This document shows positions 1,347-7,396 of a stretch of DNA of 64,000 nucleotides, piece by piece. The stretch is taken from NCBI GenBank assembly GCA_010405405.1, contig MU004236.1, forward strand, positions 1,308,070 to 1,372,069, in the 5' to 3' direction. How positions within the stretch are numbered: the first letter of the stretch is position 1; each line of letters starts with the position of its first letter. The DNA comes from Microthyrium microscopicum. Taxonomy: Eukaryota. The notes beneath the pieces are model-generated. The model saw nothing but the letters and a program-made list of their open reading frames with translations, had not been told where the DNA came from and did not search any database. The translations under genes were made by a program, and so were the position numbers.

Positions 1347-4300
1347 ATGCCGGGGCACTCGCACTCCTCATCTGGATCTTCAGGTCACTCTCTCAAGCCC
1401 CAGCAATTGCTTTATACCCATATCATAAACTAACCCGTTCAAAGATCGCGACCCGAATCGTACCAATGGCCATTCCCGAACGAAATCGAAAAGCTCTATG
1501 GCTCGTCCACGGGGTCAATCTGGTAGAGCCGAACATTCCTCCAAGCCGTCCGCAATCGATACCAGTGTAACCAACGCACACCGACCGCCCCTGAAGTCTC
1601 GCGCCCTCTCTGCCCCATTAGTCCCGAAAGGCACGTTGCCATCGCCCTTGCAAGAACGCGGCAATGGCTTCGGACCCGTGGCCGCCACAAACCCCGGAGA
1701 TGTGGTCGACGAAGAAATCGCAAACGACCCCTTTTTCCAGCGCTACAGTCTGCCACACAACGGCGATGATAGTGACGAGGACGATGAGGCGCCTTCGTCC
1801 GAGGGTCGCATCGATAGTGTACTGTCGCCCACGAGTTCCACGGCCTCGTTGTTACGACCAGAATCGACAACGGGTGAGCCATTACTCTCGCCCTCGAGTC
1901 CTAGGTCTCCTCGATATGTAAGACTAGCGATTTCATATTCCCCCCTAGACTCATCGTGACGTGTCGAAAATAGAATTGGGAGGAAATGAGGCTGACTGGG
2001 CATTTTCTAGTGGAACTCGAGCCAATCGACCAAACCCCAATTACAGGCTGTAAATATCGCAGTGGTAGGCGCCAGTCAAGTTGGCAAATCAACTTTCATA
2101 CGACAGGCCCTTGATTGGGAAGATTTACCGGACACTCCTTTTACCCAAAGAAAAGTTCAGATGGACGGCACTGTTTACGTCGTTCGCTTGATTGAGATTG
2201 GATTTGGTGATCTGGATTTGGATGATGAGAAATGCATTTGTTGGCCGGACGTTATCAGAAATACCCCCGTTCCTCATATTGATGGTGCATTTACGCTTTA
2301 CGATGTAACATGCAAAGACAGCCTTATTCAAGTCCCCGAAACACTAAGTGCGCCTCCCCTTGGAAATTGCTGCCCCTTGAGCTGACATTCGAACTTTGAC
2401 AGACGGACTTTATAACGCCAAAATTCCCTTCTTGTTGGTAGCATGCAAATGCGATCATTCTCCAAACTTGACGCCGGTCAACCCAGACCAAGTGGATGCA
2501 GACGCTCGAGCGCAAATTGGCAGTATTCGTACCCTTAGAACATCGGAGGCCGCCCCGGATACGCAAAAACGTTGTGTTGCTGTTTTACTGCGAGCAATCG
2601 CTGCAGTTCGTTCTCGTAAGTTTCGATGATTTCTCGTAACGACATTGCTGGACTCGAAAGATGGTTGTGCGTGGAGAAAGGGAGCAATTGGGCATCCTGC
2701 ACTGTTGACGTTCAGCCTCTTCGTTTCATACTAGAACCACACCGCTAACCACTCCGGCGCCTATAGAGCAACTCAACAGTGCACCCAACCGCCGAAGAGC
2801 CAATTCCTCGGCCATACACTCTCAGAATACTCCTGTGTCGCCTCCTCTCCAAAAACATCATCGCGCGAATAGCGAAATGTCCATGAACATGTATCGAGGC
2901 ACTCAGCGCACCAACAATTCGAGCAGATTCAGACCCGAAATCAATCCTCCGTTGTCGACGCGATCTCAATCGCATCAAAACTTGCCCGCTAATGCTGGAT
3001 CACGAACCTACGGCGATGGTACACGCCAACACGACTTTGTATCTAACGGCGACGACTTGGAGATGAATCCTAAATCCCCAGGAATCGCCTCGCCACTGCA
3101 AGGGGATTCTTTTGAAGACCTTGTGACTCGACTATTATCTCCTCTCAGATTGAAAGCTGATACACAGTTTGCAAGCGTGTTCCTGGCATTGTACCGACTA
3201 TTCGCCTCGCCTGGTCAATTACTGGATACCATCATAAAGAGCTTCGACGCGTTAAACTCCAACAGTATCCCACAAATGATTAAAGCAGCAGCACAGCAAC
3301 GCCATCTCAGTGTGCTAGAGATTTGGACCAGCAACTACCCAGGCGATTTTGCACATCCATACAGCAGTATGAAGCTACAGAGCTTTGTTACTCGAATCGC
3401 AAACAGCCCCTTATTCATTGCTGCGTCACAGGAACTGGCCGCAAATCTCGAGTACATTTCTGAGGACGATGACACCGATTGGGCCTTCTGCGACCGAGAC
3501 CGTTCCAACGTTCCCATAAACAAGGGTTCATTGAACCTAATCACCAAGAATCTGTCTGGTATGAACCTGGCCAGCATGGCCGACAAATCCGCGTCTCAAA
3601 CACCCGTCTCTCCAACAACCATTGGGAACTCCTCAATGTCCTCTAGCCAATCCCATCTTTCTTTCGTTGAGCAAGCCATCAGACAGGCTACTCACCTTAC
3701 GCCAACGCCACGATTCCCTCTAAACAAACTTCAATGGCACCTATTGATGGACGCGCCAGAGGATGTAATCGCCAATGAAATGAGCCGAATGGATTGGACA
3801 ATGTTCTGTAGCATTCGTCCACGAGACCTTGTGCGTCATGTCTCCCTGTCCGGCGCCGCAAAAGCAAATTGTCGCGCCCTCGAAAATGTGGAACGAATGA
3901 TTGACCATTTCAATCATGTCGCGCTATGGACAGTCAACATGATACTTCTACGAGACAAACCGAAACACCGAGCACTGATGTTGGAAAAACTAATGAGAGT
4001 GGCACGCGAACTACGACGAATGAACAACTACAACGGAGCCGGTGCTGTAGTGGCTGGAATCAACAACGTCGCGATCCAGCGTCTTCATAGCACAAAGGAG
4101 CTTATCAACCCGGCCATCGGCAAAGACTTCTTGAAGTTGAACATCCTCATGGCGCCTGAGAAAAGCCACTCAGCTTATAGATTGGCCTGGGAGAATACCT
4201 CTGGACCTCGTATTCCCTACCTCCCGATACATCGCCGCGATCTCATCCATGCTGCAGAAAGCAATCGTACATTCATCGGAGAGGAGGATGATTCAAAGAT

Positions 4301-4610
4301 CGGACAAACGGTCAACTATCGCGAGCGCCGCATCAACTGGAAAAAGTTCGAAATCATGGGCGCTGTGGTGGTTTCTATGGCGAAAGCTAAAGATGCTCCA
4401 AACCCAGGAGTCAGTCGCAATGATGAGATCAAGAGCCTGCTCATCGACGTTGAGATTGAGCGTGACGACGAAGTAAGCTCTAATACCGACTAGAACGTTT
4501 TATAGGAACTTATGCTAACCGTTGGATAGAAACTCTGGGAGCGAAGCCGACTTGTCGAACCATCTCCCTCGGACAGCAAAACGCGCTCCTTTCCTTGGCC
4601 CAAGCGATAG
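1347..4610 (+). CDS. RasGEF (REM + CDC25-homology domain) with N-terminal atypical Ras-like P-loop domain
   Basis: Six exons joined in frame: 1347-1383, 1445-1917, 2011-2347, 2403-2615, 2767-4472, 4530-4610 (GT..AG with branch sites). P-loop NIAVVGASQVGKST and G4-like LVACKCD; REM-like FLALYRLFASPGQLL; CDC25-HD motifs LRRMNNYNG and PRIPYLPIHRRDL; C-terminal INWKKF and LWERSRLVEP. Confidence 0.88.
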
Positions 4611-5270
4611 TACGAATACAGCTTTAAGGAAGGAGAAGAACTATGGGTTGAATGGCCGGACTCCGAAGACCTACCCTTGACAGACCTCCAGAAACAGGAG
4701 TGTATCAACAACCTTCACATCAAAATCACGGTGCAACGGCTCATTGAAGATGAAAAGCGTGAACAATCGCAAATGACGCCGGCCGAGAAGGAACTCCAGA
4801 GAGAGCAACTTCGAGAGGAAGAGCAGCAGCGAAAGCCCGCCGCGGTTCTAGACGAAGAAATTCTTAAACACAAAAACGAGCTGCTGCAGAGAATGGATCA
4901 GCTCAACAGACTCTATGGCAAATCACAAAAACAGCCGAAGCCAGAACCCAACGTGGCCAAGAAACAGGAGAATATCGACAAGACTAAGCTTAAAAGCTTA
5001 TTGCAACGGCTCATTGACGATGAAAAGCGTGAACAGTCGCAAATGACGCCTGCCCAGAAGCAACTTCAGATAGAAGAGCAGCAGCGCAATCGCGCCCCAG
5101 TTCTCGACGAAGAAACGCTCAAACTCAAAAACGAGCTGCTGCAGAGAATGGAGGCGACCAAGAGACTCCAGGCATTCTATCGCACGCGAAATCGCCAGAC
5201 AGTACAGCCAAAACAAGAAGCCAAAGTGGCCACGAAGGAGAACAAGTACTCTTGTTGCCAAATTCAATAG
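4611..5270 (+). CDS. Open reading frame in frame with, and directly after, the RasGEF stop; coiled-coil Q/E/K-rich, internally duplicated, ends KYSCCQIQ* (CaaX)
   Basis: No stop from 4611 to TAG at 5268-5270. The two internal repeat copies differ by synonymous/conservative changes and one in-frame indel. No in-frame ATG until about 4773. Confidence 0.55.
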   Translation, partial: YEYSFKEGEELWVEWPDSEDLPLTDLQKQECINNLHIKITVQRLIEDEKREQSQMTPAEKELQREQLREEEQQRKPAAVLDEEILKHKNELLQRMDQLNRLYGKSQKQPKPEPNVAKKQENIDKTKLKSLLQRLIDDEKREQSQMTPAQKQLQIEEQQRNRAPVLDEETLKLKNELLQRMEATKRLQAFYRTRNRQTVQPKQEAKVATKENKYSCCQIQ

Positions 5271-6976
5271 CGACCTTGAAAGCAAGAACGCAGGGGCATT
5301 CATACGCCAGGAACGAGGTTACGAACACCTCGCGAGGCATTATAACGAACATTTATACGCATCAGCATCAACGACGGCATAACGGAATTGCATTGGGACA
5401 TTGATAGTCTGTACTGGTCATCATTAGTCCGTATTGGCGGGAGACCTTTTACGAGTGCACGGAGAGGTATCAAGTGCTGTATCATCAGATATCCATCACT
5501 GGAAGTACATTTTCTGAAGGAGCATTCAATAATGGACATGAATAGCTATCATTAGTGAAATATGATTAAAAGTATTAATAAATCGCTCTGCCACGTGCGT
5601 GACATGTAGCGCTGAATAGGTGAGTGGATATTCTGCATGTGCCATCCATTTAGAAGTGGAGCAAGCAGATGCCCCTGAATGGCGAGACCCAACGGAACCA
5701 GGCTTGAAGATACAAGCGGAGGATTAAAGGGGTTTGGGCCTTTAGCAGGCTAATGTTTGTAACGACGCTAAAATTGGCTTGATGTGACACTTTTCAACAC
5801 CATGATCTGGATCTAGCGAGAAAGGCGTGTAAAGGCGTTGTTGATGCCAGGGTAATACATGATGAAACGGCCTAGGATCACTCTTGAGCTTTTTCAGAGG
5901 GCCTTTATAATACTATGGTTAGTAAGTTGACTAGATATGTTTCGATAAGAGTTTGCAAACCAGCAAACGTGACAGTTGTTTCTGGCTTATCTGCTGCATG
6001 CTCAAAGTAGCCGTGTGCTGTACTCTAGTCACGGCATCATGTCTCAAGCCGCCCAATACCAGTTATGTACTCCGTATGGAGTGGTAAGCTACAAGTATGG
6101 ATTTCATGTATGAGCAAAACACAGGCCTAATTGAGGATTGATATATCATCTGGTATGCGTCCAATCAACCTGCCAAATGCCAATATATCTGACAGTTTGA
6201 CAACCTTTACTGGCAGCTAGCTGCGCCGTAGCTCTCGGCACTCTAAATCCAGCTCTTTGTTCACAGTGTTACTTTGGCGAAAGAAGCGGAATTATCTTTT
6301 GATTGGAAAGCTAGTTGACAGAGTCATACATCCACATTCATCTGGTGCTTTGACTGTACACAAAGAGCCCCTTTAAACGGCCTTGACGGCCCCAACAGGC
6401 TCCATCATTGCCCTCTTGAACCCAGTGACACTTTGGGTAATACCTGGCTGAATCAGGCTGAGCGAGGACATAATGCAAGGCTAAGATCTGGGACGGTGGT
6501 TGGCTGGGTGTGACTTTCTACCCCTCTGCCCGTAGGCTGGTACAGAACCGGGCCTCCCTCCCCTCCAGGTCCTCTATCAACTAACTACCTCTCTTACTCT
6601 CCACCACCAACACCACCTCGCGACTGACCCGTTTCGTAAGTAATCCCTCTGCTTTGTCTCTCAGTCTTGCATCTATCCCTATACAACCTTGGCCTGCATC
6701 AATAGACACTTTGTCTTCCATCAAACGTCAGCCGTGCGTCACCGAACGCCTCCACGCCATCTCCCCCTCTCTCATCCCTGTACTTCCAGCCTAGCAGTGG
6801 GGAGGTACTGACCAGCACGACTGCACTGATATCCTTTCAGCTTCATTTGTACTTAATTCTTTTTCATCTCATGGTTCGTGGAGCAATCTGAAAGCTTGGG
6901 TGTTAACGATTCACACAGTACCAGAATCTCCCCAAGCAATCCGCCGCCATCCAAGCAATTTTCGCCCGTTCGCATC

Positions 6977-7396
6977 ATGGGTCTAGCATACAATATCTAC
7001 CTAAACTGTGCCCGTATCTACGCCTGTCAACAATGCAAGACGCATCTCGCTAATCACGATGATATCTTGAGCCGAGTATGTTCATCCGCCCACTAGCTTC
7101 ACATTCGACAGCTTCGCCTTACCCATAAAGCCCGTCCATAAAGCCGTACTAACAGTTTCCAGAACTTCCGTGGCCAACATGGCAAAGCCTACCTCTTTGA
7201 CAACGTCGTCAACGTGGACGAAAAAGAGTCCTGCGAGCGCAACATGACTACCGGCAAGCACATAGTACGTGATATCGAGTGCAAAGAATGCAAGAAGGTA
7301 GTCGGCTGGAAGTACGACAAGGCCTACGAAGCATCCGAGAAGTACAAGGAGGGCAAATTCATCCTTGAGGCTGAGATTCTTTGCTCTCTCAACTAG
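6977..7396 (+). CDS. MOH1: Yippee/Mis18-family zinc-binding protein (Moh1/YPEL5-like)
   Basis: Exons 6977-7075 and 7163-7396 give MGLAYNIYL..YACQQCKTHL..SRNFRGQHGKAYLF..MTTGKHIVRDIECKECKKVVGWKY..KYKEGKFILE, with two CxxC pairs. Probable 5'UTR intron 6636-6840. Confidence 0.93.

Follow-up and report, generated by a model that had tools for sequence, protein, structure and literature searches.

The 64,000-nucleotide (nt) stretch of Microthyrium microscopicum DNA analysed here (contig MU004236.1 of assembly GCA_010405405.1, positions 1,308,070 to 1,372,069, called the window below) carries a gene for a Ras guanine nucleotide exchange factor (GEF) of the RasGEF family and, directly behind its stop codon, a long open reading frame (ORF) in the same frame. 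Both lie on the + strand, as do the elements within them that are described below. The RasGEF gene (1347..4610), which includes a P-loop/Ras-like region, RasGEF_N and RasGEF, has six exons (1347-1383, 1445-1917, 2011-2347, 2403-2615, 2767-4472 and 4530-4610) and a product of 948 amino acids (aa). Its last exon reads ..RSFPWPKR and then TAG (4608..4610), and the frame stays open from 4611 to 5267 for 219 codons until a closing TAG at 5268-5270. The product of this ORF (4611..5270), which is E/K/Q-rich, predicted to be helical and an orphan in the collections searched, starts YEYSFKEGEELWVEW.. (longer form YEYSFKEGEELWVEWPDSEDLPL) and ends ..KENKYSCCQIQ. The first-pass annotation of this DNA had described 219 open codons ending in a CC-CaaX signal, and we find them as described. 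Our favoured reading is that these codons are a real, young, lineage-specific coding sequence.

The exon structure comes from assembled contigs of one public run, whose label as RNA was guessed and whose sample stage is not given. We treated these contigs as RNA-derived because they skip five introns with GT..AG ends (1384-1444, 1918-2010, 2348-2402, 2616-2766 and 4473-4529). The spliced coding sequence from the ATG at 1347 is 2847 nt long and its single stop is terminal. The last intron (4473..4529; 57 nt, phase 0, GTAAGC..CTAAC..TAG) contains three in-frame stops, and an RNA contig joins 4472 to 4530 across it, so that the intron start at 4473 given by the first-pass annotation is correct. 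Pfam finds RasGEF (PF00617; 158.5 bits, cut-off 23.1, 2.1e-46) and RasGEF_N (PF00618; 50.1 bits, cut-off 28.3, 3.7e-13) within 2709-4472, and the predicted product belongs with the RasGEF (Cdc25-homology) exchange factors. The species' own protein record (P0001, 'ras GEF [Microthyrium microscopicum]', 918 aa) is 100% identical over the exon-5 query. This record starts MARPRGQSG; the 61-nt intron 1384-1444 of the RNA contig and the in-frame ATG at 1347 give a start MPGHSHSSSGSS.. with 30 extra residues (window 1347-1498), and orthologues likewise start MP.... The public RasGEF model is probably short at its N-terminus. Orthologues are widespread across Pezizomycotina. M. microscopicum is a Dothideomycete, and its closest named relatives here (Tothia and Venturia) share only ∼49% identity over the GEF exon, while a few metagenome proteins reach 53-64%.

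The RasGEF stop stands where orthologous proteins end. In named orthologues, only a few residues separate the C-terminus from a shared ..LYERSxxLEPxxx(K/R)RFxWFxx motif, and the window protein ends ..KLWERSRLVEPSPSDSKTRSFPWPKR. An INWKKFE-like motif is found in 191 of 228 homologues, most commonly 67-72 residues from the C-terminus, and lies 66 residues from it here. Because the orthologues' C-termini and the INWKKFE-to-end distance agree, the TAG stands at the ancestral end of the protein, and we discount a recent nonsense mutation or an error of assembly as its origin.

The assembled RNA extends across this stop. A single 1354-nt RNA contig corresponds to 4113-4472 joined to 4530-5523, with 0 differences from the window, and leads without a break from the GEF domain over the TAG at 4608-4610 and the entire downstream ORF to 5523. 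Its sole joint is 4472^4530, and the main splice form retains the TAG. The sequence past the ORF stop that is still in the same transcript contig (5271..5523) is closed in all three frames, by 2, 3 and 2 stops. No contig covers 5524-6031, a gap that is not usable as evidence for an RNA end, as contigs cannot show transcript ends. The mean word depth is 884.5 in the contig over the 3′ part and 528.2 in the upstream contig, depths that cannot rank expression. The base at 4609 is A in the RNA contig, and the joint 4472^4611 is not in the RNA contigs of this one run, although assembled contigs drop rare variants. Thus the continuity across 4610 that the first-pass annotation had named as a check holds in the assembled RNA over both the TAG and the ORF, but the contig cannot prove a single molecule.

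The openness of the downstream frame exceeds chance, and its composition is no explanation. When 4611-5267 was shuffled 20000 times with its dinucleotides preserved, frame 0 came out without a stop only once (mean of 8.0 stops), and the other two frames of the native sequence contain 5 and 11 stops. T makes up 95 of the 657 bases. The ORF has a GC content by codon position of 0.61/0.27/0.58, compared to 0.45/0.51/0.44 in 5271-5523. The first-pass annotation had seen no in-frame ATG for about 54 codons, and indeed the first 54 codons (4611..4772) contain none, with out-of-frame ATGs at 4643, 4652 and 4750. The first in-frame ATG (4773..4775, codon 55; context tcgcaaATGa, with C at -3) would start a stand-alone product of 165 aa, and a second in-frame ATG lies at 4893. 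GC by codon position in the 54 codons before the ATG is 0.59/0.24/0.54, compared to 0.62/0.29/0.59 in the remainder of the ORF, and the codon-usage score of 4611-4772 is positive in frame 0 only (0.106 versus -0.398 and -0.521). Shuffles stayed open over 4611-4772 in 240 of 5000 cases and over 4611-4683 in 569 of 5000, and these short stretches alone are not significant. A control based on the next in-frame ORF behind 35 window ORFs of at least 150 codons was discarded, as in-phase introns yield long 'next ORFs'. Rfam gave 0 matches in 4300-5700, and no tRNA genes were found within the window. As a separate observation, a 9-codon out-of-frame mini-ORF from the ATG at 4750 to a TGA at 4774-4776 overlaps the in-frame ATG at 4773 as ATGA, an arrangement that may be due to chance.

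The ORF contains an internal duplication, found by DNA repeat search and protein alignment, that crosses the first in-frame ATG. Copy 1 spans 4690..4913 in DNA (∼4689-4946 as a protein unit) and copy 2 spans 4960..5168, with copy 2 shorter internally by 15 nt (5 codons). The copies are 81% identical and spaced at 270 and 255 nt, and the 15-nt indel keeps the frame. In the protein, the unit spans residues ∼27-112 and recurs at ∼117-203. Copy 1 starts at ∼4684-4690, ∼83 nt upstream of the ATG at 4773, and 17 of 28 residues are identical between the part of copy 1 that precedes this ATG and the corresponding internal part of copy 2.

A single-sequence AlphaFold (AF2) model of the ORF product (mean predicted local distance difference test score, pLDDT, of 66.7) contains six helices. 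It predicts a disordered start (1-24), helices at 25-54, 57-73 and 80-103 and again at 119-143, 147-159 and 167-196, and a disordered basic tail (197-219) that bears the CC-aaX end. Residues 31-50, which precede Met55, lie within the three most confident 10-residue blocks (pLDDT ∼90), the third block being 171-180. The predicted helix 25-54 of copy 1 matches helix 119-143 of copy 2. Because helix 25-54 lies before Met55, a product started at Met55 would be without the first helix of unit 1. The GC content by codon position, the start of the repeat at ∼4684-4690 and the predicted helix 25-54 support the conclusion that coding-like features extend upstream of the ATG at 4773.

The C-terminus of the ORF product has the form of a lipidation signal. 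According to the general CaaX rule for a2 and X, its last four residues, CQIQ, with Cys at -4, Ile at a2 and Gln at X, read as a CaaX box, and a second Cys stands immediately before it, which would make a Ras-type CC-aaX end (codons for CCQIQ at 5253..5267, behind the basic stretch 197-219). The first-pass annotation had pointed out this fit, and it holds as a sequence match. The yeast Ras2 protein ends in CCIIS, the first Cys of which is a palmitoylation site, and the Ydj1 box CASQ, in which X is also Gln, is farnesylated (PMC9927470). We surveyed the ends of the 580 stop-to-stop ORFs of at least 50 aa in the window. Cys at -4 occurs in 23 of these, a loose CaaX in 8, and the strict pattern CC-x-aliphatic-[SMQAC] in 2, which are the downstream ORF itself and a chance read into an intron. 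The tail is suggestive of selection, short of proof.

These observations can be put together in an explanation in which the ORF is carried on the RasGEF messenger and a small fraction of ribosomes would bypass the UAG at 4608-4610 by near-cognate readthrough, giving a minor RasGEF isoform ∼220 residues longer. The added part would begin with a short acidic linker, continue with the three-helix coiled-coil unit in two copies, and close with a flexible basic tail and the CC-aaX end. The CaaX Cys would be farnesylated and the preceding Cys palmitoylated, a dual anchor like that of fungal Ras at the membrane, which would place the extended isoform beside its substrate. We infer the passage of ribosomes across the UAG, the lipidation of the tail and any effect on Ras signalling. 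Reading the sequence in this way, we consider a minor, C-terminally extended and lipid-anchored RasGEF made by UAG bypass to be the most likely route by which the ORF is expressed, and we propose it tentatively. With its full content, that bypass of the conserved UAG gives a minor GEF isoform with a young coiled-coil arm and a Ras-type farnesyl-plus-palmitoyl anchor that would bring it into the membrane domain of Ras, the proposal is possible and distinctly uncertain.

Several features support an extension of RasGEF. The ORF is in the RasGEF frame and abuts the RasGEF stop. In 4611-4772, coding-like features are present throughout, although none of the 54 codons is an ATG. The aligned tandem unit crosses the ATG at 4773 with its 15-nt indel keeping frame, and a helix predicted with confidence would lie wholly before Met55. 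A separate mRNA starting upstream of 4643 would bear three out-of-frame ATGs before 4773, which is awkward for independent initiation there. The RNA contig 4113-4472^4530-5523 is continuous. Finally, the CC-aaX pattern is rare and similar to that of Ras2, and by this analogy it would make functional sense on an activator of Ras.

Other results weigh against such an extension, beginning with the comparisons between species. We collected 45 related loci from metagenome contigs, in 33 of which the last exon was recognised (one, L039, is doubtful) and in 12 of which it was not (among these 12, one contig ends 20 nt past the match). In 28 of these 33 loci, the frame closes again within fewer than 60 codons. 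The other five stay open behind the stop for 60, 78, 79, 120 and 207 codons (L034, L030, L025, L016 and L021, respectively), and these longer runs show no resemblance to the ORF. Likewise, tblastn revealed no counterpart of the ORF in the 45 loci or in the rest of the window (nothing below E = 1). Among the 228 homologous proteins, none has a CC-aaX ending and one has Cys at -4, P0176, which ends ..CSRC and was probably read into an intron. No homologue of the ORF product was found in a word-indexed search (lengths of 120-384 aa) or in the ESM Atlas, phmmer with the 246-aa read-through product gave 0 hits among 1.84 billion representative proteins of any length, and Pfam returned only a sub-threshold match to Mnd1 (E 0.096). 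Judged by these searches, the ORF is an orphan, without comparative support in the collections searched. Thus the conservation in relatives that the first-pass annotation had looked to was not seen, with orthologues ending at the canonical stop and the closest named relatives being, as noted above, only distantly similar.

The duplication also speaks for weak constraint, since the divergence between its copies reads as near neutral. The copies differ at 59 of 243 aligned bases, distributed 20/16/23 over the codon positions. The Nei-Gojobori ratio of nonsynonymous to synonymous substitution rates (dN/dS) is 0.70 overall; on few changes, it is 1.23 for the part preceding the ATG and 0.57 for the part following it. 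Random substitution at the same level leaves a copy open in ∼6-7% of trials. In addition, a contig spanning two genes is not proof of one transcript, RNA ends are not visible in contigs, and the in-frame position together with the 54 open codons could be a coincidence, at about one third times 0.05-0.1.

The means of passing the stop are a further difficulty. The first-pass annotation had offered UAG readthrough, adenosine-to-inosine (A-to-I) editing and an alternative splice as routes to its extended isoform; the idea itself gains from the RNA continuity across the TAG and the coding-like features before the ATG, but none of the three routes is demonstrated. In general, fungi seldom have long functional readthrough extensions. 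The RasGEF stop lies in the context CGA UAG UAC GAA (CGA TAG TAC GAA in DNA, unchanged in the RNA contig), which is not the leaky one. The leaky context in fungi is UGA followed by CU(A), and UAG in place of UGA lowered readthrough in Ustilago reporters (PMC4207609).

Editing would find a suitable base, but in a lineage for which it is not described. Fungal A-to-I mRNA editing favours hairpin loops and an A that follows a U, frequently within UAG (PMC11156358, PMC13123824), and the stop here is U4608 A4609 G4610. A possible hairpin at 4586..4635, with a pyrimidine arm CUCCUUUCCUU and a purine arm AAGGAAGGAG, would hold the UAG in its 15-nt apical loop, but it is weak (-15.5 kcal/mol, z of -1.62; 13 of 200 shuffles fold equally well), and the wider 131-nt stretch gives a z of +0.78. 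Such editing is described as widespread among Sordariomycetes and also for Pyronema, and was not detected in Leotiomycetes; the Ame1-Tad3 interaction that enables it reportedly originated within Sordariomycetes (PMC11087585). Microthyrium is outside these described editing lineages (absence in Dothideomycetes is not proven), and an A>G change at 4609, which the first-pass annotation would have expected from editing, does not appear in the assembled contigs of this run.

A splice from 4472 to 4611 would be in frame, but the joint is not in the RNA contigs, many AGs intervene, and, as the first-pass annotation had remarked, a good branch site is lacking, with no CTRAY motif after 4515. More generally, 36 GT..AG pairs would skip the TAG in frame; none is seen in the RNA contigs and no branch motif lies nearer than 4515. 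The least bad of the alternative introns is 4554-4610 (57 nt, a GTCGAA donor and a pyrimidine tract before the AG). We regard near-cognate readthrough as the probable way past the stop, and developmental A-to-I editing or a rare splice as less likely.

The same evidence has to be set against other explanations of the ORF. In draft fungal genomes, the commonest causes of an in-frame ORF behind a stop are an assembly error, a nonsense mutation or a missed intron. Here, it is very improbable that the TAG results from misassembly, that it is a nonsense mutation confined to this strain in a gene that was ancestrally longer, or that a hidden intron removes it from the main transcript; this reading is largely refuted by the presence of the TAG in the RNA contig, with 0 differences over 4113-5523 and 4472^4530 as the only joint, and by the named and metagenomic orthologues, whose C-termini lie only a few residues from the RFxWF motif and at much the same distance from INWKKFE (commonly 67-72 residues in the 191 of 228 homologues with the motif, 66 here). 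The RNA contig thus also argues against the assembly error for which the first-pass annotation had wanted a check. Another explanation is that the ORF is untranslated, a young de novo frame or a decaying remnant within an unusually long 3′ untranslated region (UTR) of RasGEF, open owing to a T-poor, purine-rich composition and a recent duplication, and with a CC-aaX end by chance. Its orphan status, the near-neutral divergence of the copies (20/16/23 by codon position, dN/dS of 0.70), the 6-7% of random-substitution trials in which a copy stays open, the low T content (95 of 657 bases) and the loose CaaX at 8 of 580 random ORF ends are all in keeping with this. We nevertheless consider it unlikely, as only 1 of 20000 shuffles is open and the other frames have 5 and 11 stops, the spacings of 270 and 255 nt and the 15-nt indel are all multiples of three, a strict CC-aaX behind a basic disordered tail is rare, and all three frames close straight after the stop of the ORF.

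More serious is the caveat of the first-pass annotation that a separate small gene might start at about 4773, which is still a live rival and one that we rate as possible, if doubtful. Here the product of the ORF would be a prenylated coiled-coil protein of ∼165 aa, specific to the lineage and begun at the ATG at 4773 or at a near-cognate start slightly upstream. A transcript of its own would begin within or shortly behind the last exon of RasGEF and overlap the 3′ end of that gene, the two would have been merged by the assembler, and the match of frames would be coincidental. A separate gene is the default reading in a eukaryote, and in-frame ATGs are available at 4773 and 4893, the first of which has a weak context (C at -3) and follows the out-of-frame ATGs at 4643, 4652 and 4750. 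Only 162 nt separate the TAG from the ATG at 4773, which leaves no space for a 3′ UTR and a promoter, yet tight same-strand neighbours do occur, since RasGEF orthologue models in other orders appear to be merged with close downstream genes. The contig that spans both is no proof of one transcript, and the higher depth over the 3′ part (884.5 versus 528.2) allows, but does not show, an additional one. The dN/dS after the ATG (0.57) is lower than before it (1.23), as expected if copy 1 is translated only after the ATG, although the counts are small. On the other hand, the repeat unit and the confidently predicted helix begin before the ATG, such that the first unit of a Met55 product would be truncated, and no such protein is found in the collections searched, which include the annotated proteins of the species' record. 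The exact frame match and the open spacer need the coincidence calculated above, which at a few per cent is not negligible.

Our tentative preference, an extended RasGEF, can be compared to known systems. A lipid anchor brings a Ras exchange factor to the membrane with Ras when Sos is engineered to carry a farnesylation signal, but this is an artificial construct, and none of the 228 homologues provides a natural GEF that ends in a CaaX box. The peroxisomal isoforms made by readthrough in fungi resemble the arrangement in the window in having an in-frame stretch behind the normal stop with a C-terminal targeting signal, one that works only at the extreme C-terminus, and in being minor, relocated isoforms. 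They differ in that they use UGA followed by CU, have a short extension and carry a peroxisomal targeting signal (PTS1) conserved across fungi, whereas the window has UAG followed by UA, 219 codons and a putative lipid anchor, with no conservation of the extension outside the species' record. Stop-loss A-to-I editing in Sordariomycetes, as in DBF2 of Fusarium graminearum, shares with it a UAG, a U before the A, a possible hairpin loop and an open extension; production of this extension is confined to the sexual stage, and it is 24 aa long and a degron, not an anchor (PMC13123824, PMC11087585). The editing machinery (the Tad2-Tad3-Ame1 interaction) is reported to be of Sordariomycete origin, whereas Microthyrium is a Dothideomycete with no A>G in the assembled contigs of one run. 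Thus the arrangement departs in one defining feature from each system, the stop context for readthrough and the lineage for stop-loss editing.

The tail is most similar to that of yeast Ras2 (..CCIIS), in which there are also Cys residues at -5 and -4, the second within the CaaX box and the first a palmitoylation site, with a flexible region before them (PMC9927470). The window tail differs in having Gln at both a1 and X (CQIQ), and in that its carrier is an orphan coiled-coil, possibly on a GEF, and no GTPase. Orphan or de novo genes that arise from 3′ UTRs are likewise without homologues, weakly constrained, of simple helical composition and grown by internal duplication, but the ORF is exactly in frame, abuts the upstream stop and has a specific lipidation pattern. 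No case of natural recoding that adds a lipid anchor was found in a literature search that was narrow and did not cover subscription journals, and no description of programmed UAG readthrough or mRNA editing in Dothideomycetes was found in the literature consulted.

The collection of related loci and proteins yielded some further observations. In the metagenome orthologue L021 (6924-7547), the last exon ends ..KKKFPWLTK, which is Sordariomycete-like, and is followed by a TAG and then by 207 in-frame codons with 0 stops, compared to 4 and 7 in the other frames. GTTCGG stands directly after this stop, so that an unrecognised intron is an alternative reading. L021 is a candidate for stop-loss editing in an editing lineage. 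A long extension common to the whole family was considered and rejected, as the 207-codon run has no match in any other locus. Long annotated tails are found in the orthologues of several orders (proteins in the ranges P0136-P0204 and P0163-P0199): those of Hypocreales continue 339-621 residues past INWKKFE with a conserved ..HLWIARTGSC.. region, those of Eurotiales have tails of 160-302 residues (most of them 160-213), usually with Pfam PF13233, and those of Chaetothyriales and lichen fungi have tails with NifU-type domains. We rejected these tails as genuine extensions, for they look like gene models merged with the downstream gene, and none has a CaaX end. They suggest that same-strand neighbours sit unusually close to the RasGEF gene in several orders. 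In the window, the next gene on the + strand (6978-7396, second exon 7142-7396) resembles Yippee-type zinc-binding proteins (MGLAYNIYLNCARIYACQQCKTHLANHDDILSR..), and a Yippee-type gene stands beside RasGEF in 0 of the 45 related loci. At the edge of the window, positions 1-330 form an AT-rich block (GC of 0.25-0.33) adjoining sequence with a GC of ∼0.5, which looks like a decayed repeat, possibly mutated by repeat-induced point mutation.

If the ORF is a separate gene, then it would be an unannotated orphan encoding a prenylated protein and sharing RNA sequence with its neighbour, an ordinary case, although one that usefully urges care with gene models where fungal genes are tightly packed. 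If the extended RasGEF is real, bypass of a stop codon could supply a membrane anchor, beyond the peroxisomal signal or degron of the known cases, and a long functional extension could arise in one lineage from a 3′ UTR by way of duplication. The efficiency of one stop codon could then split a signalling enzyme between cytosol and membrane, and a single codon would be a simple handle on how much membrane-bound GEF a fungus needs.

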